NCBI GenBank assembly: GCA_965198115.1
Contig: OZ240241.1
Location: 4,960,001-5,024,000, forward strand
Direction: 5' to 3'
DNA from: Candidatus Latescibacterota bacterium
Lineage (GTDB): Bacteria > Latescibacterota > UBA2968
DNA: 64,000 bases
The notes beneath the pieces were generated by a model that did not search any database, had not been told where the DNA came from, and saw only the letters and a list, made by a program, of their open reading frames with translations. Made by a program: the position numbers and the translations under genes. Position 1 is the stretch's first letter. Each line of letters starts with the position of its first letter. This document shows, in pieces, positions 26,818-46,033 of the stretch.

Positions 26818-28371
26818 GAGCCTGTCGGGTTACACCCGGAAGCTCGTTGAGATTAAGTCCAGCTGAGTCTGTCAGCGACCGGTTACCTTCGTTTTTTCCT
26901 TGAGCCGAGTTCCTCTTCGGGATCAGGTAGCCAATGAGAGTCGATAGAGTTTCAGAAGGTTGTGTGTGAGACAGATCAGGTTCCATTCTCTGATGACTTT
27001 GTGGATTCGGCGGAATGAGAATCGGGTGAAGTTCCGAACGGATTTGATCTGTCCAAACACGGGTTCGATGATCTGTTTTCTTTTCCAGTAGGTGCAGCGA
27101 CCTTTCTGTGTGAGAAGCTTTCTCGCCATTTTGTCTTTCGTCGTTGCGCCCTTGGGGATCCGTCCCCTGGGGCAGGTCGCGATGGGCGTTCCATGTTTTT
27201 GTTTTGTCGTCGCCACATAGAGGTCGACGCCATCTGATTGAACCTGATCGACCTGACTTTGGTTGAAGTATCCGGTGTCGGCAGTGAGGTGCTTGGGTGT
27301 CGTGCCGCCCATATTCGCTCTGATCTGGTTGACCATAGGTGTCATCTGGTTCTTGTCATCAGCTTCTTGGGTGACGTCGGCAGCAACGACAATCTGGGCC
27401 TTGTCATCCACAGCAGCTTGGCAGTTGTAGGCTTGAAGGAATTGGCCCCCTGAGACCATGATCCGTGAGTCGGGATCGGTGAAGTTCAGTTGTTCCTTTC
27501 AGTCGGGCTCTTTCGATGGAGGCTTGGGCTTACGTCCACGACCGCCGCGGCGCTCCCGGGCCTTTACCTTCTCTTCATACGCTGCCTGCTTCTCAGGAAA
27601 CTCAGCCTCCGCTTCGGCTTCGATCTCGGCTATTGCGTCGCGGATTACTTTGAGTCGAGTCTCCCGGTGCTGCAACTCCTCGGGCAACTCGTCGCCGCGG
27701 TTGTCCTTTCCGTAGAGTTCGTCTTCGGCCGCGTCAGTGGCTTCGGCCTCGGTCAAGAGTCTGCGCACTTCGGCCTCGATCTCGGCTTCTTTCTTCTTCA
27801 TCCGGCCGTAGCTCATCGCTTTGTGTTTTGAGGCATTTGCTTTGACTTTCGTGCCATCCAACGCCACGTGTCCCAGCTTCACCAGACCTGCCTTCACGCA
27901 GAGACACAGCACTTGCCTGAACAGACCTGAGAGGGCATCCAGATGCCGTTGACGAAAGGTCGATATCGTGTCGTGATCAGGATGCTGATCCAGGCTGAGC
28001 ACACGGAAAGCAACCGAGTCATAGGTCGCACGCTCGATCTTGCGGGAACTCCTGATGCCTTCACAGTAACCATACAGCAGTAGGCTCACCATCATCCGGG
28101 GATCATACGGTGGCTGGCCACCTTGAGACCCATCGTAGGTCTCGTAGATCGCGGACAAATCAAGTTGTCCGACGATATCCAGAATGAAGTAGGTCGGATG
28201 ACCCTTGGGAAGCCAACTCCGGAGATCCGGAGGCAGCAACATCAACTGAGCCGGATTGTAGACACGAAACCGAGTAGAAGTGCTCAACGGAAACCTCCAA
28301 TTCAGAGTCGGAACCTTGATCGCACTTCTACAATACGAAATCTTCCTCCGGCTGGGTACTCCGACAGGCTC
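26818..28371 (-). mobile_element. IS1182-family element; transposase 26923-28287 with in-frame TGA at 27499-27501
   Basis: IRs GAGCCTGTCGG; TSD CTAG; motifs G.PPYDP, SSRKIE, PDH.TI, DGTK..ANAS, TDPDSR, ADTGY, IEPVFG. Confidence 0.9.
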
Positions 28372-28390
28372 CTAGGATAGGGACCTCCCC

Positions 28391-28543
28391 CTCTCTTTGG
28401 AGCTGGTCGATTCTGTGACGTTGCTCCCGGACAGTTTTCCTCAATTCTACAAGCTGGCCCTTCAGAGGCTTGACCTGTTGGTTGATCTCACGCTTCGCTA
28501 AACGAACGATCTCTTCTCTCAGAATCTGATTCAGGTTCGGCAT
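28391..28543 (-). pseudogene. N-terminal coiled-coil of a small regulator-like protein, truncated by IS256
   Basis: MPNLNQILREEIVRLAKREI...; AGAGG RBS. Confidence 0.55.
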
Positions 28544-28977
28544 GCATTTCCTCTTTTATCGCTATGAATGGCCTTGAGGCCAAGAGTGCGTCGACATTGA
28601 CCAGGCGCCCACCACACAATACCTCCCATATCTCACTATCTCAATTTTCAAAATGTGAGTCCTGGGCACGTTCCTGACGAGTACGCTTTGGCCTGACTCT
28701 TCCAAAGGAGCATAAATGAAACGTTAATCGCCCCGTTCGCTCCACGAGATCACCGACATCGCACCTGATCCTCCTCTACTTGTCCCCGGACATATCCTCG
28801 CGTATTCTTACACTGCGACTCATTACCAGATCGATCGGCTGGAATGTATTCCAGACCCGAACAGGGTGGACTGCATCCAGCCGGTCGAGTGCTATGGTTC
28901 CGGTTACCGAAAGGCCCGGACCTCATACGATCTGGTATGGGTGCGCAGCCTGTGGTGTTCGACCGGCCTTGAAAAAG

Positions 28978-30397
28978 GGCTATATCCGGATCTCTCAACG
29001 AGATGAAGTGGGTGAAGGTGCCGTGGTTCCTGGCATGGGGGCGCGGTTAGCGTGTGCGGAACCTCTTCGGAATCTGCTCAGGGATGTTTATGTCTCCGAC
29101 GGTAAGGAAGATCATATCGTTGAATGCGTCGAGTGTGCGGAATCCGCTGGCTCGGTTCTTGACGATTTGGACGATTCGGTTGAGGCCTTCGGCGATGGCG
29201 TTGGTAAGACGCGTGTTCACGAATGCGAGGACGCCGAAGAAGTGCTGTCGCAGGGTCCTGACGAACTTTCGCAGGGGTTCACGTCGACTTCTGAGTGCGG
29301 ACGTCGTCCAGCATTTCAGGAAGCGTTCGGCAGCCCAGGGCGCTTTGTATTCCCAGAACTGCTCGAACTCGTCCTTGAGTCTCCAGGCTCTATAGATTCG
29401 GTAGTTCGCCTTCTCCAGTGCTTTGAGTGTCCGAGTATCCCCTCTGGAGCGTGTCGCTGAGTGCCGGTAGAGGAGCCATCGGAGGCCCTTCATGGCTTTG
29501 CGCTCATCCGGGGCAGCTTTACGCCACTGGTCCTTACGGACCTCGTCAACGGCGGCATTGAGAGCCTTGACGATGTGAAAGCGATCGAGGACCAGCTTGG
29601 CATTCGGACAGTGTTCCTGGATGGCTCCGATGTAAGCTTCGCTCATGTCGCAGCAGGCCCACTCGATCTTGGATCTCTGGTAGGGACTGAGAGCCTCTGT
29701 GAAGAACCGATCGATCGTTTTACGCGCCCTGCCGCGGCCAACCCACACCACGCAGGAGCGGTCCAGATCGTAAACGAGCGTGGCGTACCTGTGACGCTTG
29801 GCGTAGGAGATCTCGTCGATCCCGATGGTTTTGAGCCCTCGGATACGATGACCTTCACGAAGCCGCGTGATGGATCGGTGAAGGAGATCCGACAGCGTCG
29901 AGGCAGAGATGCGCAGTAACTCGGACGCCGCCTTCTGCGTCATGGTCTGGCAGTAGCGCAGCATGGCATACTCGAAGCGATACGTCACCCGAGAGAACCG
30001 CTCCGCCCACGGAATCTCCTCGACCACACGACCGTGGGTAGGACACCGAATCTCCCGAGGATGGTAGAGAAGCCAGACCCTCCACCCGCACACCGGAATG
30101 TCACGCCACCGACGCGGATGGGGCATTGTGCGGACGATTTTACCTCGACGGCCGCACTCCGGACAACAACAACCATTCTTATGTGGCTTTACGGCGATGA
30201 CGAAGCAGCTTCTCCCCTCAAACCACCAGCTGACAACACGGAACCCCTTGAATCTCAGCAGTTTCGATAGTAATCTGCTCCCGGTCATAGGTCGCACCCC
30301 CTTCGCTTTGATTGTCCTACACACACAACCAAGCGTAGGGAACGATCTATGACCTTGTCATTCTATAGTTTCACCGTTGAGAAACCCGGATAGAGCC
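28978..30397 (-). mobile_element. ISL3 copy 2 (transposase 29047-30324)
   Basis: Same IRs as copy 1; left flank TTGAAAAAG. Confidence 0.95.
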
Positions 30398-30404
30398 TGA
30401 AAAA

Positions 30405-31824
30405 GGCTATATCCGGATCTCTCAACGAGCTGAAGTGGGTGAAGGTGCCGTGGTTCCTGGCATGGGGGCGCGGTTAGCGTGTGCGGAACCTCTTCGGAAT
30501 CTGCTCAGGGATGTTTATGTCTCCGACGGTAAGGAAGATCATATCGTTGAATGCGTCGAGTGTGCGGAATCCGCTGGCTCGGTTCTTGACGATTTGGACG
30601 ATTCGGTTGAGGCCTTCGGCGATGGCGTTGGTAAGACGCGTGTTCACGAATGCGAGGACGCCGAAGAAGTGCTGTCGCAGGGTCCTGACGAACTTTCGCA
30701 GGGGTTCACGTCGACTTCTGAGTGCGGACGTCGTCCAGCATTTCAGGAAGCGTTCGGCAGCCCAGGGCGCTTTGTATTCCCAGAACTGCTCGAACTCGTC
30801 CTTGAGTCTCCAGGCTCTATAGATTCGGTAGTTCGCCTTCTCCAGTGCTTTGAGTGTCCGAGTATCCCCTCTGGAGCGTGTCGCTGAGTGCCGGTAGAGG
30901 AGCCATCGGAGGCCCTTCATGGCTTTGCGCTCATCCGGGGCAGCTTTACGCCACTGGTCCTTACGGACCTCGTCAACGGCGGCATTGAGAGCCTTGACGA
31001 TGTGAAAGCGATCGAGGACCAGCTTGGCATTCGGACAGTGTTCCTGGATGGCTCCGATGTAAGCTTCGCTCATGTCGCAGCAGGCCCACTCGATCTTGGA
31101 TCTCTGGTAGGGACTGAGAGCCTCTGTGAAGAACCGATCGATCGTTTTACGCGCCCTGCCGCGGCCAACCCACACCACGCAGGAGCGGTCCAGATCGTAA
31201 ACGAGCGTGGCGTACCTGTGACGCTTGGCGTAGGAGATCTCGTCGATCCCGATGGTTTTGAGCCCTCGGATACGATGACCTTCACGAAGCCGCGTGATGG
31301 ATCGGTGAAGGAGATCCGACAGCGTCGAGGCAGAGATGCGCAGTAACTCGGACGCCGCCTTCTGCGTCATGGTCTGGCAGTAGCGCAGCATGGCATACTC
31401 GAAGCGATACGTCACCCGAGAGAACCGCTCCGCCCACGGAATCTCCTCGACCACACGACCGTGGGTAGGACACCGAATCTCCCGAGGATGGTAGAGAAGC
31501 CAGACCCTCCACCCGCACACCGGAATGTCACGCCACCGACGCGGATGGGGCATTGTGCGGACGATTTTACCTCGACGGCCGCACTCCGGACAACAACAAC
31601 CATTCTTATGGGGCTTTACGGCGATGACGAAGCAGCTTCTCCCCTCAAACCACCAGCTGACAACACGGAACCCCTTGAATCTCAGCAGTTCCGATAGTAA
31701 TCTGCTCCCGGTCATAGGTCGCACCCCCTTCGCTTTGATTGTCCTACACACACAACCAAGCGTAGGGAACGATCTATGACCTTGTCATTCTATAGTTTCA
31801 CCGTTGAGAAACCCGGATAGAGCC
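30405..31824 (-). mobile_element. ISL3 copy 3 (transposase 30474-31751), tandem with copy 2
   Basis: 7-bp spacer TGAAAAA; right flank TTGAAAAAG. Confidence 0.95.
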
Positions 31825-32021
31825 TTGAAAAAGCATGCCGAGTGTCACGGGTTCCGTGGCGCTCGGCATTTCTGTTCCAGGAACCAACTGACGCCAGTAG
31901 GCCCTGACCCACAGAATGGAAGACGCGCCTAATCTGGAGCCTTCCTGATCCACAGACTATGATCTGGATGGTCAACCGGGCCCAAGTCTCGGGACATGGG
32001 TCTTAGAAGGAGGGAACTACG

Positions 32022-32823
32022 ATGTTCGGCATATTCCTATCACTGGCGCTGTTATCTGTTCTTGTAACCATCGTCGCAATCATCAAGCCTTCGATCTACA
32101 GAGCTGAGGAGAGGGGACAAGCCTTCCTAAGAGGAGCATTGATCTTCCTCGTATTCATCATTTTAGGCTTGATTGTGGCCCCGGAGACCGATGAACAGAA
32201 AGCCGAGAGACTGAAGGCGGAGGTTGAGGCGGCTCGTCAGGACTCGCTGGCAGCCCTGCCTATGGAACTTAAGTGGGTTGAGGAAGCTGCTCACGCCGAA
32301 CATCCGCTCGGTCATCTGAACGAGTTATGGGCTGCCTCGGTCCTACCAGAGACAGACAAGGTCGTTGCGTGGTCAATGGCGGAGAAGTTCACGAAACAGG
32401 CACTCAAGGGCTCAAACACGAACTACCTGTTTCAGACCGTGAACTACCCGTGGTATGACGGATCATCCATTAAGGCCGACTCAATGGCCGTGATTGAAGA
32501 AGCGACAGGTAGATATCTTCGGTACTATACCGTGAGCACCGAATTCGACGTGAAGAACGAATACAATGCGGAGGTCCGACTTCGCTCAACGATCCACATG
32601 TATACAGCGGATAACGAGGACTGGAAGGCCTACCAAGTTTACGTATCCGATCCGCGCAAGAGACCTTTACTTAGCGGTATCGTTACGATTGAGAACGATG
32701 CTTGGGAGGGCAGAGACCGAGCCTATGCTCCTGATTCGCTACTGGCTCTCTTAGACGAGAGAAGACGAGAACTTGGACACTTCGAAAAGGCCGAGGCAGT
32801 TCTCGACTCGATCAAGCGCGGAC
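32022..32823 (+). CDS. Hypothetical membrane-anchored protein, C-terminus cut by IS256
   Basis: AGGAGG RBS, two N-terminal TM helices; stop codon supplied by the IS IR. Confidence 0.6.
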
Positions 32824-34114
32824 GGTCAAGTCCCATAGTCAGTTGAAACTCATCGGGCCCCGTAGTTTGGTCAGGCTCTCTTTTGAGCATTCTGTTCGTT
32901 GTCGAGATTCAGATCTTTGTTCAGTGCTTGCCTGAGTAGGGGAAGATGTTTGTATCCGCTCACGCGTCGCAGGCGAGGTTCGATGTCGAGGAGTGCGGCA
33001 GCCACCCATCTGTGTCTCTGGGGAGAGTTGTTCCAGCGTCTGACCTTCCGAGTGAGCTCGCCGGTCCTGCTGTTGAGGGCTTCGATGCAGTTGGTGGTTC
33101 GGAAGCTTCGTTTCAGGAATGGGAGCATACCCAGCCGGTGGAGGGTCAGGGTTTCCTCCAGGCCTTCCTCGAGGCTCGTTACGGCAGACTGATTCATCAG
33201 CTTCAGTTCGGGTTTAAGTGATTCGAGTGCGGCCTTTGCCTCCTCGTAGGTGTCGCAGTCATAGGCTTTCTGGAGCTTCCGTCGAACTCTTGGACGTTCC
33301 CTCTCCGGGAGATAGCTGACGACATTCTCGCGCTTGTGCCACTGACAGCGATGAACGCGCACATACCCTTTGAGGGCTTTGGTGACAGCACTGCGGAGCC
33401 CCTTTGAGCCGTCAAGCACAACGAGAAGGCCCTGGTCGTAGCACAGGCCTCTCCGGATGAGGTCTTGGATCAGCTGGCGGCAGATCCGTTCGTTCTCCGT
33501 CGCCGATTCGACGAAGCCCAGGGGGATCTTCTGGCCGTCCATCGTGACCCCCAGAGCGATCACGATCTCTTCGTCGGCAAAGCTCTTTCCGTCAATGAAG
33601 AGGGTCACGAAGCCGTAGTCGTCGAGGGGACGCTCCTGGAACTGCTTCAGCTTCTTCGCGGTGGCTTTGATGAACCGCCGCGAGACGGAGGACGCTGAGA
33701 TACCAAACGCTTCTGGAACCGATTCGGCACAGGCCTTGTAGTTGCGGCACGAGATCCCCTTGAGAACACGAAGCAACAGCCCCTCGTCCGTCTTCTTGGG
33801 CGTCTGTAGAGCCCGGTATGCAGCCAGGGAAACCTCTGCGTCGGCCTCGACGTCGCGCACCCGGGGAACGTCTAACGGGAGCTTCTGGTCCATCAGATAC
33901 ACGGATCCCTTCTGGCTTCCCCACCGACGATGCGCCTGCTCCGAACCTTTGCGCGCATACCGAACGCCTGCGAGCTGCTCGACCTCCTGCTGGAGGAGGT
34001 CTGCCACTGCCTCCAGACCCAACGGGATCAACTCTTACGGGTATACGCTCCCTACACGTCTACCCAACGTAAGTTTGGAGCCCTCTAAGTTTCAACTACG
34101 ATAGGCACAACACC
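32824..34114 (-). mobile_element. IS256 copy with an internal deletion of the transposase start
   Basis: Both IRs present; compared with 40385-41772, ~100 bp are missing near 34031. Confidence 0.9.
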
Positions 34115-34394
34115 GTAGGGTTCATCAAAGGAAAGAGTGCGATTCACATTGCTCGGAACTATCTGGGACGCAGGTCGAACTTCACCGGGCAGCATTTCTG
34201 GGCAAGAGGCTACTGGGTCTCCACCGTTGGCAAGGATGAACAGACGGTTCGGGAGTATATCCAGAACCAGGAGCGGGAGGACCGGCGTCTCGACCAGCTC
34301 AACATTTTCAGGTAATCGCCACCTTTAGGTGGCGCTTGGTTTCCAACCGCTTTGAGCGGTTCACAAGTTTTCAAGCCTCCGGCTTTGCCGTGAC
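34115..34394 (+). mobile_element. IS200 copy B, 3' half only, right hairpin damaged
   Basis: Matches copy A from GTAGGGTTCATC; GAGGTCA is missing from the right-end hairpin. Confidence 0.85.
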
Positions 34395-34520
34395 TTATTA
34401 CTTTCTACTTGAATTAATCCCCTCCATCAGCCGCGTTTGCCCGCCATTCCTGGTCATCGCATCTTGGTTGCGTTGACCCGTCACTACGCGTGTTCCATAA
34501 ACCCGACCCATGGAGCCCAT

Positions 34521-34743
34521 ATGGCAGCAACACGATATGCGATGGACGAATACCTCGATCACTTCAAGGAAAACGGCTACGTCGTGGTGCACGGGGCGCT
34601 GTCGCCAGAGGAGGTCGCCCGGGTCAATGACGGTATCGATGCCTACAGGGCGGCGCATCCGGAAGAATGGGTGATGGAGCCGCGGCTGGACCACGATGCG
34701 GTGGGAAGGGATGCGCCGGGGGTGATGGAACGGACGGAGGCGC
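34521..34743 (+). pseudogene. Phytanoyl-CoA dioxygenase (PhyH) family N-terminal fragment
   Basis: HFKENGYVVVHGALSPEEV. Confidence 0.65.
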
Positions 34744-35326
34744 CTAAATATGAGCCCCCCTCCCTCGGCTATTATATCTCTCCCCAGCACTGGGGGGGGT
34801 GCCGAGGGCGACGGCGAGGTCCAAGGGCGAACGGTAGCGAAGTCCATACGCTCGGCAAGGCAAAACAACCTGGCACTTCAGTTCAGGAATGGTGGTGAAA
34901 ATGTGGGGAACGCCCTTCCTGTGTGGACGCAAAGTATTATTTATCAACAAGTTTTATGACTGAATTGGTGGAAGTATTGAATAGAACCTTCCTGGGTGAG
35001 GATCGCCCTCGAGATCCTGCCGGTATCGGTATCATCGCGCGTGACTACACCAAGGTAAATATGGGAGATCGTCAATCATTTTTCCGACTAAGGTTTTACC
35101 CCTTCACGGAGGGAACCATTGATCCTGAGCGACCCCAAAGGCGGGATGGCCGGAGTGCAACGTCGGCCCCCCGCCGGGGCCAAGAATCGACGATTCTGGG
35201 GGAGAGGCGCTCAGGCCTTTCGCATGGCCACGTCTAGTGCGTTTTTCATGATGCTGTGGTGACTGCGTAACCGCTGTCGAAGCTCCGCACGTGAGCGTCT
35301 ATGAACCATTGACCTACGATCAGCTG

Positions 35327-36001
35327 ATGAGCCACTCCGTCCGCCATCATCTTCGCCTTGAGATTGATGCCTACGACGAGACCATCCGCACGTTCATCCC
35401 AGGCTACGAAGAAGGCTTGGCGAGGGCTGCCAACGAAATCGCTGGTGTTCGCCCAACCCTGGTGCTTGACCTCGGCGCGGGAACGGGCGCCTTGGCTGAA
35501 GCGATGCTGGTCCAAGAACGCGTCGGTGCCGTTGAAGCCATCGACATCGATCCGGAGATGCTGGCCCAGGCGCGCCTTCGGCTCAAGCGATTTGGGACCC
35601 GCGCTCGTGTCCGCCGGCGGTCGTTCGAGGCGCCACTCCCCACGTGTGACGCCGTGGCTACGGCCCTGGCTCTGCACCACGTTCCCACCATGGCACGCAA
35701 ACTCACGCTGTATACACGCATTTACCGGGCGCTCCGCCCCGGTGGCGTCTTCGTGAACACCGACGTGGCCATCAGCGCACACCCGGGGGCGCGCGAGCAG
35801 TCGTACCGTCGATGGGCCACCCACCTGGTGTCGTACGGCATTGACGAACAGCGCGCCTATGAGCACTTCGCCGCGTGGTCGGCGGAGGACACCTACTTTT
35901 CAGTCGACGACGAACTCGCGGCCATGCGCGAAGCCAAATTCCAGGCTGACTGTATCTGGCAGGATCGCCCACACACTCTCCTGGTAGGACGCAAGATCTG
36001 A
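35327..36001 (+). CDS. Class I SAM-dependent methyltransferase (CmoA-like)
   Basis: IPGY, LDLGAGTG, ALALHH, LRPGGVFVN. Confidence 0.85.
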   Translation: MSHSVRHHLRLEIDAYDETIRTFIPGYEEGLARAANEIAGVRPTLVLDLGAGTGALAEAMLVQERVGAVEAIDIDPEMLAQARLRLKRFGTRARVRRRSFEAPLPTCDAVATALALHHVPTMARKLTLYTRIYRALRPGGVFVNTDVAISAHPGAREQSYRRWATHLVSYGIDEQRAYEHFAAWSAEDTYFSVDDELAAMREAKFQADCIWQDRPHTLLVGRKI

Positions 36002-36322
36002 GCCCCGGTCTACGGGAATCTTGATGTCCCCCGTATATCGGCTTCGGGTTCAGCCTCCGTGCGCGGCGGAGTCGACGTGTCGCACGCGCGGGCCCGTGAC
36101 TCGGCGAATCCCTCCAATCTTGCGTGCCGATGCATGCCAACACGACGTTCGACTGAGCGGTTACCCCAACCGCTACACGGTGATGAAAAGCGCTTTAGGG
36201 CCGCTGGCGGGTGTCGGAGCCTGCCCGCAGGGATAATTTCGGCCGGGAACTTGGTGCGACCGCGTACCGCACCTCCGGCTCTCGATGCGCCAAAAACGTT
36301 CCAGAAACCCCCGCGAAACGGG

Positions 36323-36352
36323 TTGCAAACCCAGGCCGTTCTGGCTTATATT
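36323..36352 (+). promoter_or_regulatory. Putative sigma70 promoter
   Basis: TTGCAA-N18-TATATT. Confidence 0.5.
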
Positions 36353-36357
36353 GCCAC

Positions 36358-36447
36358 CTAAGACAACCCATCGGACTACGCCCAGACAGGGAGATACGGG
36401 TCCGATAATCTCGACCCCAGGGACGACTCGTGCGTCCCTGTATTTTT
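36358..36447 (+). ncRNA. Candidate structured leader/antitoxin RNA ending in an intrinsic terminator
   Basis: Stem ATCGGACT/GGTCCGAT with inner CCC/GGG; terminator CAGGGACG-loop-CGTCCCTG-TATTTTT. Confidence 0.4.
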
Positions 36448-36460
36448 GTACGGACAGAGA

Positions 36461-36830
36461 ATGCCCGGTGACGATCTGATCCATGGCTCACGCCACCGCG
36501 TCCGCGTGTTTGTGGACTTCTGGAACTACACGCTCTCCATGCGCGATGCCGAAGAAGCGTTCCGCACGGATTGGTCAGAGACTCGGGCCGGTGCTGTCGC
36601 ACGCCGCGGCCGCCGTCGTCGATGCTGCCGCGACGGGCGAGTATCAGGGTTTGAACTTCTACGGTTCCTACGACCCGACCAGCGACGCAGACCGGAAACT
36701 TCACCGCTGGGCAACGACGATGGTGGACACATTTCCAGGCGTGAGCGTGTCGGTCGTGCCGCGCCAGAGGAAGCGTTCGCCGCCGTCGTGCCCTGCCTGC
36801 CATGCGGCGGTAGCCCAATGCCCCGCCGCG
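36461..36830 (+). pseudogene. NYN/LabA (PIN-like) nuclease with Cys cluster, N-terminal part; frameshift near 36580
   Basis: RVFVDFWN (NYN D..N motif), ...FYGSYDP..., CPACH....CP; truncated before the EKGVD-type motif. Confidence 0.6.
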
Positions 36831-36841
36831 GCACCGTTCTA

Positions 36842-36957
36842 TCGCGTCATTTCCAATCTCATGCTCAACGCGGTCAAACACACCGGACGCGGCGGCACGA
36901 TCACGTTGAAGTGCAGTCGACTCGACGAGGTGCTGCAGATCGACGTCATCGACAACT
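36842..36957 (+). pseudogene. HATPase_c fragment
   Basis: RVISNLMLNAVKHT..GGTITL....QIDVID. Confidence 0.65.
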
Positions 36958-37280
36958 ACTCGGAAGTAGACCCGGCGCCCCCGCTCCTCGGGGCGTCCGT
37001 ATCGCACATAGTGGATCTTTCGCAGGATGCTTTCGAGCCCTTTGCGTCGGCTCGAGAAGTCCCAACCCCGATCCCGAATCCGGCCCTCCCCGTCGATGAA
37101 CAGCTCCAGATCGATCGACGCCTCGAGCGCTTTGTAGCGTAAACGCGGCCGCAGATCGATGCGTTGCCAGACGCCCTCGTCGACGGACACGGCACCGACG
37201 AGACCGTCCATCGTCAGATCGACGGCTTCGGCATTGCGAGTTAGCAGGAGAAGACTCAGGAGAAGAAATCGAAGCACGCA
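36958..37280 (-). pseudogene. N-terminus of a secreted protein
   Basis: MLRFLLLSLLLL..AEA signal peptide; ...ILRKIHYVRYG; truncated. Confidence 0.5.
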
Positions 37281-37439
37281 TTCCTCGAGTGAAGGGTTCG
37301 GTCCGATTGTAGGCGAATGTTCGCTCCGGAGTCAACGTTCTCGCCCGTTGACGGCGGCGAGCCGCACGGATATCGTATCTGGGCGGAAGAGGGCAGGAAC
37401 CACAGATGAACACCGATGGACACAGATGTGACTCAACCC

Positions 37440-38655
37440 GAGGACTGTGGCTCTTCTTGCCTGGATGTTTGGCTGGTCCTTTCAAACTGACCCCCTTCCC
37501 GCTGTTTGCCGCCCGTAAATTCTCGAGATGCGTCTTCATCTCTTCCAGAAAACCGGGATCCTTCACCCAGCGTATCTGGTCCTCCAGCCGAGGTCGCTGT
37601 CGCTCGAAGTGCTTCGTCAACACGTCGTAGATTCCGAGCGCCTGGATGAACTTGGCCGTGGCAACCTCCCGAACGGTGATCTCGACACGGATCCGCTGCT
37701 GCTGAAATCCGGGCTCCTCGTTCGTCAACTCCAGGAACGCGGCCTGCTGCAGAGCCTCCATCCGAAGAAGGCTTTTCGTGAGCAACAGCTTTGTCCGTTC
37801 TGTATCGTGTGAGAGGAGCTGCTGTTCCCGAAGAGCCCTGGCATCATTGTAGACGACCGATCTGTCAACGCCCAGAGCTTCTGCGACCTGGAGATGTCGT
37901 CCTCCTTTGGCCAGGAGCGTGCCGACCAGCAGCCGCCTGGCCCACACGGCCGCGTGCTCACCCGACCCTTCCTTCTTCCTCCCAGCGGACCACGTGCCCC
38001 TCCCCTCACGCAGGATCTTCAGGGCCTGCACAGAGCCCGCGCCGAACAGAGACAGTTGATTCGGGTGGACGACCGCATTCACCAACTCGTGGATCGCGGC
38101 GATGTGGCCTCGGTCCACATAGGGCACCCCCTCATCTGGCAGATGCTTCACGGCATCCATCGCGCGTTCGTCAGCAACGGGCTCGCCCACGCGTAAGCCG
38201 GCGGTGACCCGGCCATAGAAACCGACCTTCTGGAGCATCTTACAGAGCCTCATCTCCCGACGGCCGATTTCGGTCCTGATTCTTCGCCGAAGCTGGAAGC
38301 TCCCGGCCTCACGCAGGTCGGCGAAAGCCGCCACCTGGAGACGTTCAAACCGCCTCCTTATCTGGGAGAGTGCTGCCTGCGCTTGCCCAACACCCTCTGC
38401 GAGCACCTGGTAGACCGAGATCACCTCCAGGTCGTCCCTTACGACGGGCCCATCAACCCCCAACCCCCTCGCGATGCCGACCACGTCCTCTTCCCGCGCG
38501 TACAGCTCAGCGGCGACCAACCGTCTGCCCCAGTCGATCGGGTTCAGGCCCTCCACCCGCCTTCCTCGTGGCCAGGTGCCCTCTCGCTCGAAGAGGGCTT
38601 TCCTGACGCGCACAGAGTCGACACCGGGAAGGGGCAACTCGTTCGTCCGGGCAAC
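37440..38655 (-). pseudogene. Fragment with two HTH units (phage small-terminase/regulator-like)
   Basis: RRLVAAELY...IARGLGVD..VVRDD and RRLLVGTLL.KG...VAEALGVDRSVVYND. Confidence 0.45.
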
Positions 38656-39147
38656 CTCAAGTATGGCTACCACGTCGCTCTGATCGGCTATCAAGACTTT
38701 GGTTATGAACGATTCTGGAAGACCTCGTCTGCGTCGACCCCGACCCCCAGGTGTCTCTACTCCCCACCTAAGAATTTCCTGAAGGGCACCGTCGACCTCC
38801 CGGCCCCTTTTGTCCTGTGTGAAGTCGTGTCCGTCTCGGGAAAATTCGAGGTAACTCCAGGCATCGCGGCCGCTGCCATAGCTCTTCCGGACGCGCCAAA
38901 TGCGTTGAGGCTCCTGTTCAAAGGTTAGAGACACCTTTGGCGTCGCATCAGTGTTCCAATCGAGGAGCGATTCAGCTGCGACTGAACCCGCTGGCAGAAG
39001 CAGTGAGGCACGCACCGCCTTCACGATGTTCGACTTACCGATCTCGTTTGGCCCGTGGAGGATGTTCAAGCCCGGCCCGAGGTCGATGCTCGCGCTGGCT
39101 ATACCAGCAAGATCAGTGACTTCGATTTTCTGGATCCACATTGCCAT
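38656..39147 (-). pseudogene. SbcC/Rad50-like ATPase, N-terminal fragment
   Basis: MWIQKIEV...GLNILHGPNEIGKS Walker A; coiled-coil and C-terminal half replaced by unrelated sequence. Confidence 0.75.
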
Positions 39148-40280
39148 TAACTCGCTGCTTCCTTGACTAGGCGGTACAGATGATGCAGAGCTCGTTCAGC
39201 TACCTTAGGATTAGATTCGCTTCTATCCTGCAGACGCGAGATCGTCGATTGAAGTACCGCTGGCAGCTCTTTACCGAACTCGATGGGCGTGTCCGTGGCG
39301 AGATGTAACCCGTTGCGATCCTCGGACAGGACCCCTACCCGTGGATTAGCAGCGAGGGAACCGCGGAGCTCGATCAAGATGCGTTCCGCCTCGTCGTATT
39401 CTTCCATCGGAACCACCATTTCGAGCTTAAGTCGAAGTACTGTCTTGCGTAGGTCGCTAGCCCCAGCGAGCGAACGAAGATCCGACATCGATCTGCAGAT
39501 TACTTCTCGCCATTCCCAAGTTCCGACTTGCTCCCGCCGAACTATCGGTCTCCGCGCCCGATCAAGCGGGAAGAATACGATTGCCACGGAGCCAGTTTCG
39601 TTCTCTCCGAAATTTGTTGCCTCAGGCGCACCAGGATAGATCGTAGGGGCAGTAGCCTCTGGCTCAACATCCCGAAAGGCATGCGTGTCACCGATTGCGA
39701 GGTAATCGAGACCTCGCTCTGCGGCGATACCGCTAGCGATGGGAAAGTTGGTTTGATAGCCCTCGATGTCGAAGGTCTGTCCATGGACAAGTCCGATTCT
39801 GAAACGGCTCTCGTTGGGTTCGCGGTCTGGCAGGGATGATGCAATGTCGGTTTGTCCGGCGTGTGATCGGCAAGGGTTCGCGATGACGACTGCACGATCA
39901 TCGAGCTCGAGTGTAAAGCCTTCTTCGTCAACGACGTGAACGTATTCTGGCAGCCCAGCACGGAATGGGTGGTCTGGGTGGTAAACAGAGCGCGCCATCA
40001 GGGGGTCGTGGTTACCGGGGAGTAGTACTACCGGGCGAGCCCAGTCGCGTCGCTGGAATTCCTTCAAGAGACCGCCCCACCATTCTTTGGGTGGTGAGGA
40101 TTCATCGAACAGGTCTCCTGCAGCCAAAACTGCATCGACGTTACGGCTGTGCGCGAGATCGAGGATGCGTCCAACAACTTCTAGCCGTGCCCGCGTAAGA
40201 CGCAATTCTTGTTCCGGCCGAAACGACGGGAAGCGTCGCCCGAGATGCCAGTCCGCAGTGTGTAGAACTGTCAATGCCAT
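39147..40280 (-). CDS. SbcD/Mre11-like metallophosphoesterase nuclease
   Basis: HTADWHLG, AGDLFD, PGNHD, VHG, AIGDTH, YPGAPE. Confidence 0.9.
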   Translation of the reverse strand: MALTVLHTADWHLGRRFPSFRPEQELRLTRARLEVVGRILDLAHSRNVDAVLAAGDLFDESSPPKEWWGGLLKEFQRRDWARPVVLLPGNHDPLMARSVYHPDHPFRAGLPEYVHVVDEEGFTLELDDRAVVIANPCRSHAGQTDIASSLPDREPNESRFRIGLVHGQTFDIEGYQTNFPIASGIAAERGLDYLAIGDTHAFRDVEPEATAPTIYPGAPEATNFGENETGSVAIVFFPLDRARRPIVRREQVGTWEWREVICRSMSDLRSLAGASDLRKTVLRLKLEMVVPMEEYDEAERILIELRGSLAANPRVGVLSEDRNGLHLATDTPIEFGKELPAVLQSTISRLQDRSESNPKVAERALHHLYRLVKEAAS

Positions 40281-40384
40281 TTCGCTGTCCTGTAGTTGTC
40301 GGTCCAGCTGCTCTTGGTCTGAACAGTCACTCAATGCAAAACTCCGCCTGTAACAGACGCTCAATCTGTGTAGGCGTATATCTC

Positions 40385-41772
40385 GGTCAAGTCCCATAGT
40401 CAGTTGAAAACTCATCGGGCCCCGTAGTTTGGTCAGGCTCTCTTTTGAGCATTCTGTTCGTTGTCGAGATTCAGATCTTTGTTCAGTGCTTGCCTGAGTA
40501 GGGGAAGATGTTTGTATCCGCTCACGCGTCGCAGGCGAGGTTCGATGTCGAGGAGTGCGGCAGCCACCCATCTGTGTCTCTGGGGAGAGTTGTTCCAGCG
40601 TCTGACCTTCCGAGTGAGCTCGCCGGTCCTGCTGTTGAGGGCTTCGATGCAGTTGGTGGTTCGGAAGCTTCGTTTCAGGAATGGGAGCATACCCAGCCGG
40701 TGGAGGGTCAGGGTTTCCTCCAGGCCTTCCTCGAGGCTCGTTACGGCAGACTGATTCATCAGCTTCAGTTCGGGTTTAAGTGATTCGAGTGCGGCCTTTG
40801 CCTCCTCGTAGGTGTCGCAGTCATAGGCTTTCTGGAGCTTCCGTCGAACTCTTGGACGTTCCCTCTCCGGGAGATAGCTGACGACATTCTCGCGCTTGTG
40901 CCACTGACAGCGATGCACGCGCACATACCCTTTGAGGGCTTTGGTGACAGCACTGCGGAGTCCCTTTGAGCCGTCAAGCACAACGAGAAGGCCCTGGTCG
41001 TAGCACAGGCCTCTCCGGATGAGGTCCTGGATCAGCTGGCGGCAGATCCGTTCGTTCTCCGTCGCCGATTCGACGAAGCCCAGGGGGATCTTCTGGCCGT
41101 CCATCGTGACCCCCAGAGCGATCACGATCTCTTCGTCGGCAAAGCTCTTTCCGTCAATGAACAGGGTCACGAAGCCGTAGTCGTCGAGGGGACGCTCCTG
41201 GAACTGCTTCAGCTTCTTCGCGGTGGCTTTGATGAACCGCCGCGAGACGGAGGACGCTGAGATACCAAACGCTTCTGGAACCGATTCGGCACAGGCCTTG
41301 TAGTTGCGGCACGAGATCCCCTTGAGAACACGAAGCAACAGCCCCTCGTCCGTCTTCTTGGGCGTCTGTAGAGCCCGGTATGCAGCCAGGGAAACCTCTG
41401 CGTCGGCCTCGACGTCGCGCACCCGGGGAACGTCTAACGGGAGCTTCTGGTCCATCAGATACACGGATCCCTTCTGGCTTCCCCACCGACGATGCGCCTG
41501 CTCCGAACCTTTGCGCGCATACCGAACGCCTGCGAGCTGCTCGACCTCCTGCTGGAGGAGGTCTGCCACTGCCTCCAGACCCAACGGGATCAACGCCTGG
41601 ATCACCGACAAACGCGTCTCCAAATCGATGACATCGCCCTCAACCTTGACTTCACCATCGCCTACAAATAGCTTCTCCATCTGGGCTCCTTTCTTACGGG
41701 TATACGCTCCTACACGTCTACCCAACGTAAGTTTGGAGCCCTCTAAGTTTCAACTACGATAGGCACAACACC
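40385..41772 (-). mobile_element. IS256-family element, intact (transposase ORF 40433-41680)
   Basis: IRs GGTCAAGTCCCATAGTCAGTTGAAA / TTTCAACTACGATAGGCACAACACC; no matching TSD. Confidence 0.92.
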
Positions 41773-42146
41773 CTTCGCCGGGAAAGCTGATCCTGCTCCT
41801 ATACCAGGGCGCGATCAAATCACTCAAGAAGGCTCTCGACCTGATGGACCGGAAAGACTTCGGTGGCAAAGGCGACGCGATCATCAAGGCTCAGGACATT
41901 CTGATGGAGCTGAACATGGCGCTCGACCACGGAGCCGGCGAAATCGCGCATTCGCTCCAGCAGATTTATCTGTATGCCTACAAGAGGCTGGTCGTGGCCA
42001 ATCTCGAGATGGATCGGGATGCGATCACCGAGATCGTCGTCATTCTTGAAAATCTCTACGAGGCGTGGGAAGAGGCCGTTCAAAAGACGGACGGTCTGGT
42101 TCAAGTTCCCGAGCCGCGTGTCGCCACTGTCAGTGTGACGGGTTAA
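41773..42146 (+). pseudogene. fliS: Flagellin chaperone FliS, 5'-truncated by IS256
   Basis: SPGKLILLLYQGAI...KAQDILMEL..ALD...GEIA.SL..IY.Y..RL..AN...AWEE. Confidence 0.85.
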
Positions 42147-42150
42147 CGCT

Positions 42151-42609
42151 ATGGATACCGGCAAAGAACTCGTCAAACTGCTCGAGACGCAGAGGCGTCA
42201 TTACGACGCGCTAAAAGTCGTGGTCGGCCGTCAGACGGTCCATATCGAGGCCTTGAATGTCGCCGGGCTGGCCACAGATACGGCCGAAGTGCGTGACCTG
42301 ATGCGGAAGGCGCGCGATGTAGAGGCCGCGATTCGCCCCCTCCGGCAGAGCTGGGGGAACATGGGTCTCGATCGTGATCCCGCCGATCGTCGGAAGGTCG
42401 AAGCGGTCGTGGACGCTGTCCGGGCATCTGTGGAGGAGATTCAGGAAACGAAGGACCGAAACGCTGCGATGCTCCAGGAACGGATGGGCGATCTGAGGAA
42501 ACAGATGGCCGGCCTGCAGACGCAGGGCAAGGCGGCACACGCCTACTATGGCCCGCGGAAGAACGGCGGGGCGCCACCGTCAAAATTTATCGATCAGGCA
42601 ACTAAAAAA
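42151..42609 (+). CDS. FlgN/FliT-like flagellar chaperone; last codons hit by ISL3
   Basis: Helical ~150 aa between fliS and flgM, ending ...AYY...KFIDQ. Confidence 0.6.
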
Positions 42610-44030
42610 GGCTATATCCGGATCTCTCAACGAGATGAAGTGGGTGAAGGTGCCGTGGTTCCTGGCATGGGGGCGCGGTTAGAGTGTGCGGAACCTCTTC
42701 GGAATCTGCTCAGGGATGTTTATGTCTCCGACGGTAAGGAAGATCATATCGTTGAATGCGTCGAGTATGCGGAATCCGCTGGCTCGGTTCTTGACGATTT
42801 GGACGATTCGGTTGAGGCCTTCGGCGATGGCGTTGGTAAGACGCGTGTTCACGAATGCGAGGACGCCGAAGAAGTGCTGTCGCAGGGTCCTGACGAACTT
42901 TCGCAGGGGTTCAAGTCGACTTCTGAGTGCGGACGTCGTCCAGCATTTCAGGAAGCGTTCGGCAGCCCAGGGCGCTTTGTATTCCCAGAACTGCTCGAAC
43001 TCGTCCTTGAGTCTCCAGGCTCTATAGATTCGGTAGTTCGCCTTCTCCAGTGCTTTGAGTGTCCGAGTATCCCCTCTGGAGCGTGTCGCTGAGTGCCGGT
43101 AGAGGAGCCATCGGAGGCCCTTCATGGCTTTGCGCTCATCCGGGGCAGCTTTACGCCACTGGTCCTTACGGACCTCGTCAACGGCGGCATTGAGAGCCTT
43201 GACGATGTGAAAGCGATCGAGGACCAGCTTGGCATTCGGACAATATTCCTGGATGGCTCCGATGTAAGCTTCGCTCATGTCGCAGCAGGCCCACTCGATC
43301 TTGGATCTCTGGTAGGGACTGAGAGCCTCTGTGAAGAACCGATCGATCGTTTTACGCGCCCTGCCGCGGCCAACCCACACCCACGCAGGAGCGGTCCAGA
43401 TCGTAAACGAGCGTGGCGTACCTGTGACGCTTGGCGTAGGAGATCTCGTCGATCCCGATGGTTTTGAGCCCTCGGATACGATGACCTTCACGAAGCCGCG
43501 TGATGGATCGGTGAAGGAGATCCGACAGCGTCGAGGCAGAGATGCGCAGCAACTCGGACGCCGCCTTCTGCGTCATGGTCTGGCAGTAGCGCAGCATGGC
43601 ATACTCGAAGCGATACGTCACCCGAGAGAACCGCTCCGCCCACGGAATCTCCTCGACCACACGACCGTGGGTAGGACACCGAATCTCCCGAGGATGGTAG
43701 AGAAGCCAGACCCTCCACCCGCACACCGGAATGTCACGCCACCGACGCAGATGGGGCATTGTGCGGACGATTTTACCTCGACGGCCGCACTCCGGACAAC
43801 AACAACCATTCTTATGTGGCTTTACGGCGATGACGAAGCAGCTTCTCCCCTCAAACCACCAGCTGACAACACGGAACCCCTTGAATCTCAGCAGTTTCGA
43901 TAGTAATCTGCTCCCGGTCATAGGTCGCACCCCCTTCGCTTTGATTGTCCTACACACACAACCAAGCGTAGGGAACGATCTATGACCTTGTCATTCTATA
44001 GTTTCACCGTTGAGAAACCCGGATAGAGCC
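42610..44030 (-). mobile_element. ISL3 copy 4 (+1 frameshift in transposase)
   Basis: 1421 bp; TSD CTAAAAAA (42602-42609, 44031-44038). Confidence 0.95.
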
Positions 44031-44041
44031 CTAAAAAAGCC

Positions 44042-44068
44042 TCAAGAAACCGTTGAACAGGCCGATAT
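44042..44068 (+). promoter_or_regulatory. Sigma28 (FliA) promoter of flgM
   Basis: TCAAG-N14-GCCGATAT immediately upstream of the flgM-like gene. Confidence 0.75.
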
Positions 44069-44086
44069 AAGGGATAGAGGCCCACT

Positions 44087-44557
44087 ATGAGAATCGAAAA
44101 CGCTATCCACGAATTACGCGGTCCCGACCTTCAGGAACGCCGAAGTGAGGAAGTAAAACGGCGTCGCCAGGCTCCCAAAGCCGGTGACGTGGTTGAACTG
44201 TCCAAGACGGCGCAATCCCTGGGGTCGCAGTCCGTATCGGCCAGCGACCTGAATTCGGTCAACGACGTCCGACAGGCTCGTATAGACGCCGTCAAACAGC
44301 GCGTGGCCGAAGGTTTTTACGACCGACCCGAAGTCCGCCGCGCGATCGCTGATGCGGTTTTGGACTCCGGCGTCGTCGAAGGGGTCAGGCAGGAAGCCCG
44401 ACAGGTGGGGCAAGCCCGTTCAGAAATCGAGAACGTGCCCGAGGTGCGGCTGGAGCGCATCGAGGAGGCCTGCCGACGTGTTGCCTCCAACTTCTACGAT
44501 TCGGCGAACGCTTGAGTCGAGACGGCGAACCGAATCCTGGAAAACATCGTCGGCTGA
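44087..44557 (+). CDS. flgM: FlgM anti-sigma28 factor with duplicated C-terminal module; in-frame TGA at 44513
   Basis: DVVELS; DVRQARIDAVKQRVAEGFY..IADAVL and EVRLERIEEACRRVASNFY..*VETANRIL. Confidence 0.75.
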
Positions 44558-44584
44558 CCTGGACCGACGGAGAAATGTGAGAAC

Positions 44585-44614
44585 GGCGAGGACGAAAGTC
44601 CTCGCCATTTTTTT
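44585..44614 (+). terminator. Intrinsic terminator after flgM (its T-tract is the ISL3 target)
   Basis: GGCGAGGAC-GAAA-GTCCTCGCC-ATTTTTTT. Confidence 0.85.
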
Positions 44615-46033
44615 GGCTCTATCCGGGTTTCTCAACGGTGAAACTATAGAATGACAAGGTCATAGATCGTTCCCTACGCTTGGTTGTGTGTGTAGGACAA
44701 TCAAAGCGAAGGGGGTGCGACCTATGACCGGAGCAGATTACTATCGAAACTGCTGAGATTCAAGGGGTTCCGTGTTGTCAGCTGGTGGTTTGAGGGGAGA
44801 AGCTGCTTCGTCATCGCCGTAAAGCCACATAAGAATGGTTGTTGTTGTCCGGAGTGCGGCCGTCGAGGTAAAATCGTCCGCACAATGCCCCATCCGCGTC
44901 GGTGGCGTGACATTCCGGTGTGCGGGTGGAGGGTCTGGCTTCTCTACCATCCTCGGGAGATTCGGTGTCCTACCCACGGTCGTGTGGTCGAGGAGATTCC
45001 GTGGGCGGAGCGGTTCTCTCGGGTGACGTATCGCTTCGAGTATGCCATGCTGCGCTACTGCCAGACCATGACGCAGAAGGCGGCGTCCGAGTTACTGCGC
45101 ATCTCTGCCTCGACGCTGTCGGATCTCCTTCACCGATCCATCACGCGGCTTCGTGAAGGTCATCGTATCCGAGGGCTCAAAACCATCGGGATCGACGAGA
45201 TCTCCTACGCCAAGCGTCACAGGTACGCCACGCTCGTTTACGATCTGGACCGCTCCTGCGTGGTGTGGGTTGGCCGCGGCAGGGCGCGTAAAACGATCGA
45301 TCGGTTCTTCACAGAGGCTCTCAGTCCCTACCGGAGATCCAAGATCGAGTGGGCCTGCTGCGACATGAGCGAAGCTTACATCGGAGCCATCCAGGAATAT
45401 TGTCCGAATGCCAAGCTGGTCCTCGATCGCTTTCACATCGTCAAGGCTCTCAATGCCGCCGTTGACGAGGTCCGTAAGGACCAGTGGCGTAAAGCTGCCC
45501 CGGATGAGCGCAAAGCCATGAAGGGCCTCCGATGGCTCCTCTACCGGCACTCAGCGACACGCTCCAGAGGGGATACTCGGACACTCAAAGCACTGGAGAA
45601 GGCGAACTACCGAATCTATAGAGCCTGGAGACTCAAGGACGAGTTCGAGCAGTTCTGGGAATACAAAGCGCCCTGGGCTGCCGAACGCTTCCTGAAATGC
45701 TGGACGACGTCCGCACTCAGAAGTCGACTTGAACCCCTGCGAAAGTTCGTCAGGACCCTGCGACAGCACTTCTTCGGCGTCCTCGCATTCGTGAACACGC
45801 GTCTTACCAACGCCATCGCCGAAGGCCTCAACCGAATCGTCCAAATCGTCAAGAACCGAGCCAGCGGATTCCGCACACTCGACGCATTCAACGATATGAT
45901 CTTCCTTACCGTCGGAGACATAAACATCCCTGAGCAGATTCCGAAGAGGTTCCGCACACTCTAACCGCGCCCCCATGCCAGGAACCACGGCACCTTCACC
46001 CACTTCATCTCGTTGAGAGATCCGGATATAGCC
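44615..46033 (+). mobile_element. ISL3 copy 5 (-1 frameshift near transposase start)
   Basis: 1419 bp; TSD ATTTTTTT. Confidence 0.95.

Follow-up and report, generated by a model that had tools for sequence, protein, structure and literature searches.

To our knowledge, RNA antitoxins are known for only a few toxin folds. Of the described systems, the type III toxin-antitoxin loci ToxIN, CptIN and TenpIN resemble the locus reported here in their order of promoter, antitoxin-like RNA, terminator and ribonuclease gene, in the lack of a protein partner and in their carriage by plasmids and phages; truncated toxins beside intact RNA are also noted for type III loci in the accessible text of Blower et al. 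2012 (PMC3401426). The present module differs from all three in having a predicted toxin of the NYN (PIN-like) rather than the ToxN-like kind, an RNA built from a hairpin and a short repeated motif with no conserved pseudoknot, and usually a single RNA unit that is often divergent from or downstream of the gene. By the criteria in that part of Blower et al. (PMC3401426) it does not belong to ToxIN, CptIN or TenpIN, since its predicted toxin is not of the ToxN type and its RNA shows no pseudoknot. If the mechanism proposed below holds, it would nevertheless work, by analogy, like a type III system.

The closest working model is AbiF/RCd22 of Clostridioides difficile, for which the available part of the report (10.1101/2025.04.15.648962) describes a two-motif hairpin RNA that binds the protein and acts in cis as well as in trans. 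There, as here, a two-motif hairpin RNA of about 100 nt and a terminator precede a ribonuclease. AbiF, however, is an Abi_2/AbiD/F protein linked to Cas13 ancestors, whereas the nuclease here belongs to Pfam NYN, and the abiF RNA motif (Rfam RF03085) has no match in the window or in 16 related loci. HEC-09 consists, like the present module, of a single NYN gene with the same kind of RNA unit, and is presented as a protein only in the text available to us (Payne et al., 10.1101/2024.01.29.577857). The RNA motifs linked to DUF3800 (DUF3800-I to XI, drum and skipping-rope, as given in the main text of PMC5737381) are distinct, with no Rfam match between the present RNA and these; DUF3800 itself is assigned an RNase H-like fold in the main text of PMC10910872. 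LabA/DUF88 NYN proteins (PF01936; structure 2qip, and MARF1 NYN 5yaa and 6fdl) share the fold and the catalytic aspartates, but the nuclease described here adds a zinc-ribbon insertion and an RNA partner.

The NYN section of the 2017 PIN classification (PMC5499597) names neither an RNA partner nor a bacterial toxin-antitoxin role, and the parts seen of that paper list bacterial NYN proteins without functional studies. A full-text literature search, with thin coverage of subscription journals and with the supplements of PMC5737381 and PMC11109978 outside its scope, showed among the entries listed no pairing of an NYN protein with an RNA antitoxin or RNA motif, in agreement with the preliminary description, which had not recognized the pairing as known. 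Main-text passages of PMC5737381 and PMC10910872 name no NYN-linked RNA, and among the rows listed in the supplements of PMC8040213, two files excepted, NYN entries are incidental neighbours.

The locus was found in a window of 64,000 nucleotides, the whole stretch of DNA analysed, from a Candidatus Latescibacterota bacterium (GCA_965198115.1, contig OZ240241.1, positions 4,960,001 to 5,024,000). Its features are collected in Table 1.

Table 1 Predicted and observed features of the RNA unit and nuclease remnant (window coordinates)
Feature	Position	Strand	Remarks
Sigma70-type promoter TTGCAA-N18-TATATT	36323..36352	+	predicted transcription start about 36359-36360
Predicted non-coding RNA, about 89 nt, candidate antitoxin	36359..36447	+	covariance-model match, covariation
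Single-stranded motif 1, ACCC at its end	36360..36369	+	family consensus YAUnnnnACCC, CCC nearly invariant
Main hairpin	36370..36406	+	outer stem 36370-36375/36401-36406, internal loop, apical CCC/GGG stem 36381-36391
Single-stranded motif 2, ACCC at its end	36407..36417	+	short direct repeat of motif 1
Intrinsic terminator-like hairpin and imperfect U tract	36418..36447	+	97.7% of alignment cells paired
Zinc-ribbon NYN ribonuclease pseudogene	36461..36828	+	codons 1-122 of about 216, +1 frameshift near 36577
Unrelated HATPase_c fragment	36838..36956	+	took the place of the nuclease 3' half; second copy elsewhere in the genome

The promoter proposed in the preliminary description is present where it was claimed, in a 3.5-kb neighbourhood that holds 3 promoter-like sites against 0.9 expected; a TTG-type -35 lies at a near-constant distance in most of 80 homologous RNAs. 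The main stem, also proposed there, is reproduced by folding and by compensatory changes in homologues, and the intrinsic terminator takes the form of a hairpin at 36418-36440 followed by TATTTTT up to 36447. With the covariance model the window RNA scores 94.8 bits, the window being part of the training set. Since this RNA alone folds only modestly better than its shuffles (z -1.6 over 106 nt, z -2.6 over 89 nt), its reality is argued here from comparison. A search of the window against Rfam 15 gave no match at the gathering score. The unit occurs once in the window's genome and contains no longer repeat, only two short motifs, so that its description as single-copy rather than an array is correct for the window; it does not extend to some relatives, which carry two or three tandem units. 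A short peptide encoded in the RNA was rejected, as closed reading frames of at least 10 codons occur in just 10 of 82 RNAs, with lengths scattered across three frames.

The gene that follows has the ATG at 36461 and the CxxC cluster initially reported, and it is indeed frameshifted and truncated: the +1 shift falls near codon 39, the gene stops at codon 122 with its 3' half lost, and three of the four conserved aspartates are missing. The frameshift is seen without differences in Logan contigs from runs of two studies (X1 record 1, X3 record 26), and the truncation joint near 36828 is covered by one 70-nt contig with about 30 bases per side, which is borderline. Two RNA runs contain small shares only, as contigs of relatives, without transcript ends or strand, and speak neither for nor against expression. 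Relatives in the same runs have one more base than the window RNA on either side of the middle helix (36377-36398), and the window RNA carries a C-to-A substitution at the apex of its terminator stem (36426); these changes are either a paired deletion or early decay. The window holds the remnant of a module in which the nuclease is inactivated and the RNA unit alone is kept.

Although the fragment in the window is itself below Pfam NYN detection, its intact homologues (209-216 aa) match Pfam NYN (PF01936) at 54-55 bits against a cut-off of 24.2, which bears out the initial NYN assignment. Across 43 sequences D19, D161, D163 and the four cysteines are invariant and D136 nearly so. The predicted fold (pLDDT 88.2) has LabA-type 2qip and MARF1 NYN as its top structural matches, with no ToxN, CptN or TenpN toxin among the matches listed; a PDB search by sequence returned nothing, and matches in the ESM Atlas carry only the name "NYN domain-containing protein". 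The subfamily numbers 919 proteins at E 0.001. The read-through fragment matched 17 loci in GTDB genomes of several phyla, and further loci were found on 5 small plasmids, at 79 metagenome loci and on 5 viral contigs; 7 of the 168 genomes of the window's phylum carry the family, and E. coli genomes gave no DNA match to the gene of one plasmid locus (L021). Intact modules of less than 1 kb exist on small plasmids. Their surroundings vary, comprising housekeeping genes, recombinases, transposases, dcm/vsr, BrxL and phage portals, and no recurring partner protein was found among 143 neighbours (of 155 ORFs called) in an NCBIfam scan at 1e-20, in which most neighbours had no match at all, so that unnamed partners are possible. 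The RNA-NYN module is a stand-alone, patchily distributed cassette. At one locus (L076, 660-3805) it sits between the genes for GAPDH and phosphoglycerate kinase (PGK), and its terminator therefore lies inside a glycolysis gene cluster.

The RNA accompanies the nuclease with great regularity. All 17 of the first loci retain the RNA leader, and a covariance model built from these and the window (model 1) matches 82 of 84 loci at E 2e-5 or better, the 84 being what is left of 113 after removal of duplicates, of short variants and of loci that lack upstream DNA. A second model recovers both misses and most short variants, its weakest matches having E values of about 0.001-0.004. The intact genes, duplicates removed, number 82; upstream DNA of 200 nt or longer is available for 77 of them, 76 show a match, and at the remaining one (L105) a hairpin is visible by eye. 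No true match was found beside any gene other than the NYN nuclease or its remnants, which supports the specificity of the pairing suggested at the outset. Rfam searches of 16 loci gave RNAI and tRNA matches elsewhere only, and none at the RNA unit.

The conserved upstream structure and terminator anticipated from the window were recovered in the homologues. When the alignment is fitted by the model, two-sided changes are seen at 21 of the 22 pairs and pairing holds in 94.4% of cells, which none of 500 shuffles equalled. In alignments made blind to structure, the outer stem remains 87.4% paired with compensatory changes in all six of its pairs, the terminator reaches the value given in Table 1, and these two elements supply four of the five top covarying column pairs. 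The pseudoknot first drawn between GAGAT and ATCTC, on the other hand, is ruled out: the complete set of five pairs is possible in 3 of 31 close RNAs and in none of 39 distant ones, the 40.8% of cells that pair falls within the 34-45% obtained when the whole structure is slid along as a control, and the best 45 covarying column pairs hold no further pairing signal that could be a pseudoknot. An element overlooked in the preliminary description is the unpaired YAUnnnnACCC that directly precedes each hairpin. Of 82 RNAs, 62 contain both CCC motifs, with a distance of 48-55 nt between the two in 61 cases, and the second ACCC is lost in a divergent clade. The two copies co-vary at 1 of 14 positions (36 of 70 identical vs 26.3 +/- 3.5, reached in 7 of 2000 shuffles), a signal that is weak after multiple testing. 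Minimal variants (L096, L101, L102, L104, L105, L245, L248) consist of ACCC, one hairpin and a T run, so that RNA and terminator are one element.

A related arrangement is found around HEC-09. Distant paralogues of the window family are true members of PADLOC HEC-09 (1e-58 to 1e-92), while the window family matches the HEC-09 model PDLC04163 at about 1e-14 and over residues 115-201 only; in the window's genome the model picks another locus and not the window gene. The window family is a separate sister clade to HEC-09, with four cysteines. In the window's phylum 34 of the 168 genomes have HEC-09-like genes, which are also present in 284 plasmid records, often enterobacterial ones, and at 73 viral loci, and all eight of the plasmid records that were fetched show hairpins and a terminator by eye. 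A detector for the CC motif, hairpin and terminator, designed after these sequences had been viewed and with near-duplicates counted, was positive upstream of 71 of 92 HEC-09 genes and of 9 of 57 control genes taken from the same loci, or of 66 of 92 and 3 of 57 when a -35 was also demanded. Without the CC condition, promoter-terminator units are found in 46 of 76 de-duplicated HEC-09 loci, and in 28 of these 46 a CCC lies 7-22 nt past the -10, against 12.3 +/- 3.0 (maximum 22) in shuffles. Downstream or both-side units explain some of the 21 loci of the 92 that fail the upstream detector. In one clade of six (L188, L189, L192, L199, L220, L243) the hairpins abut the start codon and have no U tract, and no RNA unit was seen in the three members whose flanks were inspected; some members have a short ORF-like stretch upstream, and the clade may use another control.

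Taken together, the layout and conservation of these loci suggest that the module is probably a type III-like toxin-antitoxin system, in which an NYN toxin is held by a hairpin RNA antitoxin. A constitutive promoter would supply a surplus of the RNA of about 90 nt, and occasional transcription past the terminator would yield a little nuclease mRNA. The hairpin RNA is predicted to bind and neutralize the zinc-ribbon NYN ribonuclease, the protein presumably recognizing the unpaired ACCC beside the hairpin, and by analogy with ToxIN the nuclease might cleave at the repeated motif and so set free RNA of unit length. Once transcription stops, because the plasmid or cassette is lost or a phage infects the cell, the RNA would be degraded and the nuclease, now released, would arrest the cell. 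This antitoxin reading is supported by the conserved structure, the tight linkage, the four gene geometries and tandem units described below and the repeated loss of the nuclease, and also by plasmid and phage carriage, the conserved aspartates, the NYN fold and the lack of a recurring partner protein. It is weakened by the absence of a pseudoknot, unlike ToxI, CptI and TenpI, by the negative HEC-09 screen, the exceptional clade of six and the 21 of 92 detector failures, and by the non-independence of the orphan RNAs and the loss of the second ACCC in the divergent clade. In that screen the one HEC-09 system examined, cloned with its putative promoter region, gave no protection against any phage tested, according to the available text of the report (10.1101/2024.01.29.577857). 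In view of this negative result, the module may serve addiction more than defence, or the screen may have lacked the trigger phage. Of the original proposal, the pairing of an NYN nuclease with its own promoter-to-terminator RNA, the structure and the terminator stand, and the pseudoknot does not.

In addiction modules the toxin can be lost first and the antitoxin cannot, and the loss of the nuclease with retention of the RNA is the direction predicted for such modules. An RNA-first search of 151 genomes gave 13 matches in 12 genomes. Two precede an intact nuclease gene and 11 a broken or deleted one: the window gene is frameshifted and cut, two genes are internally deleted (G164, G084), two are cut after about 25 codons (G089, G082), two are cut at the start (G078 and the second copy in G085) and four are gone (G088, G073, G080, G091), the RNA being kept in each. 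All 10 broken genes among the loci found by protein first still have the RNA. Conversely, no nuclease remnant without RNA was found in 31 genomes, where close protein matches occur at RNA loci only. In viral contigs, a pattern scan that started from the RNA gave 56 matches, of which 50 are chance and 6 pass the model, three before intact genes and three on identical contigs with the gene cut after the first motif. Most orphan RNAs belong to a single genus and so are not independent of one another, and errors of assembly may account for some of the frameshifts; the asymmetry is a pattern and not a statistic.

The RNA could instead be a cofactor, decoy substrate or sensor acting in trans on a non-toxic or conditional nuclease, for example in a phage-sensing ribonucleoprotein. 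We consider this unlikely, even though the linkage and orientation data fit it equally and the DUF3800-I, drum and skipping-rope RNAs likewise show both orientations next to a single protein family (main text of PMC5737381). HEC-09 could moreover be cloned and expressed in E. coli (10.1101/2024.01.29.577857). On its own, the cofactor or sensor role predicts neither loss of the nuclease with retention of the RNA nor a terminator between RNA and gene that lowers nuclease output; the antitoxin reading is preferred on these two points.

The position of the RNA relative to the gene bears on whether it acts in cis or in trans. At L053, L068, L079 and L085 and at plasmid loci L021 and L022, the RNA scores on the opposite strand only (27-50 bits) and retains the TTG -35 at the usual distance, and is therefore transcribed away from the nuclease gene. 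The first four form one clade (support 100) nested among leader-type loci. Of the trees used, a quick tree and FastTree, the latter with 110 rows requires 7 changes to reverse orientation, at least 5 of them forced by strong branches, with orientation labels assigned by detector and eye. By eye, the unit lies downstream of the gene in three loci, convergent in L197 and co-oriented with its own promoter in L245 and L248, and on both sides of the gene in L158. Whole units are repeated in tandem at spacings of 64 (L175), 68 (L195), 61 (L181) and 53 (L151), three times at 50-52 in L233, and, by eye, in L100; the terminator hairpin recurs within such tandem units. Because the RNA keeps its own promoter when divergent or downstream, and because whole units are duplicated in tandem, it likely acts in trans.

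These arrangements make it quite improbable that the RNA is a cis leader only, that is, an attenuator, or an autoregulatory hairpin through whose binding or cleavage the nuclease would keep its own expression low. Most loci do have the leader layout, and the divergent clade lacks the second ACCC, which adjoins the terminator, as such a role would allow; a leader, however, cannot work when it is encoded on the opposite strand or placed downstream of the gene, and the RNA has no true match before another gene family. A cis role in addition to the trans role is likely by analogy with RCd22. It is very improbable that the reversed RNAs are type I-like antisense RNAs to the nuclease mRNA in a family of mixed mechanisms: at L021 and L022 the RNA promoter overlaps the start codon and the transcripts could overlap, but at L053, L068, L079 and L085 the RNA begins about 100 nt upstream of the start codon and is directed away, pairing with the mRNA leader is impossible for co-oriented and downstream units, and what is conserved is the structure and the CCC motif. 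Least credible is a portable promoter-terminator cassette whose RNA has no function, since, although terminator stems covary trivially and orphans could survive as insulators between convergent genes, the non-terminator stem covaries equally strongly, CCC stands at a set distance from the -10 of the HEC-09 units more often than in shuffles, and whole units occur in tandem.

We see about even chances for a broader reading, in which the zinc-ribbon NYN nucleases and their HEC-09 sisters would form a widespread, undescribed class of RNA antitoxin systems, the first with a PIN-like toxin. A minimal RNA of ACCC plus hairpin would bind the nuclease in trans from any position, expand into small arrays processed by the nuclease, and be kept as an orphan that immunizes the host against incoming modules. 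If so, an NYN/PIN-like toxin held by a hairpin RNA of 60-90 nt would add an unrelated fold to the toxins under RNA control, in a large family of 919 window-subfamily proteins and the HEC-09-like genes on 284 plasmid records. Bacterial NYN proteins would gain a testable function and HEC-09 the RNA component missing from it, and the module would be another example of how one RNA, next to a ribonuclease gene, expands into an array.

Several loci show further arrangements of these units. L151 is a 5.1-kb E. coli plasmid (NZ_CP050050.1) that carries, besides the NYN gene with its two-unit array, a DUF3800 gene, so that two nuclease families with linked RNAs share one very small plasmid. In L183 and L184 two unlike RNA units stand in tandem 190 nt upstream of a cysteine-less HEC-09 gene, the first approximating the type of L172 and the second coming from another subfamily. 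At OW967273.1 and OW969813.1 (H21, H34) an HEC-09-like NYN protein is annotated as "6-hydroxy-3-succinoylpyridine 3-monooxygenase HspA", probably a transferred misannotation (compare the available text of PMC5499597).

The window's own neighbourhood is a dense IS region (27499-45964) with several copies of two transposase types, some frameshifted: a 425-aa type in tandem at 29047-31751 and again at 42679-45964, and a 386/430-aa type at 32871 and 40433. On the minus strand (36946-40571), running towards the NYN remnant, lie a metallophosphoesterase gene and then an SMC/AAA-type ATPase, whose N-terminus continues into unrelated sequence with an HTH-like stretch; the pair looks like a disrupted SbcCD/Mre11-Rad50-like system. 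In the HEC-09 locus of the same genome (L182, G000:C1:3167990-3168613, minus strand) the RNA unit is intact, with promoter, ACCC, hairpin and terminator, and is cut off from the gene by two tandem copies of the same IS as in the window, inserted at the T run of the terminator.
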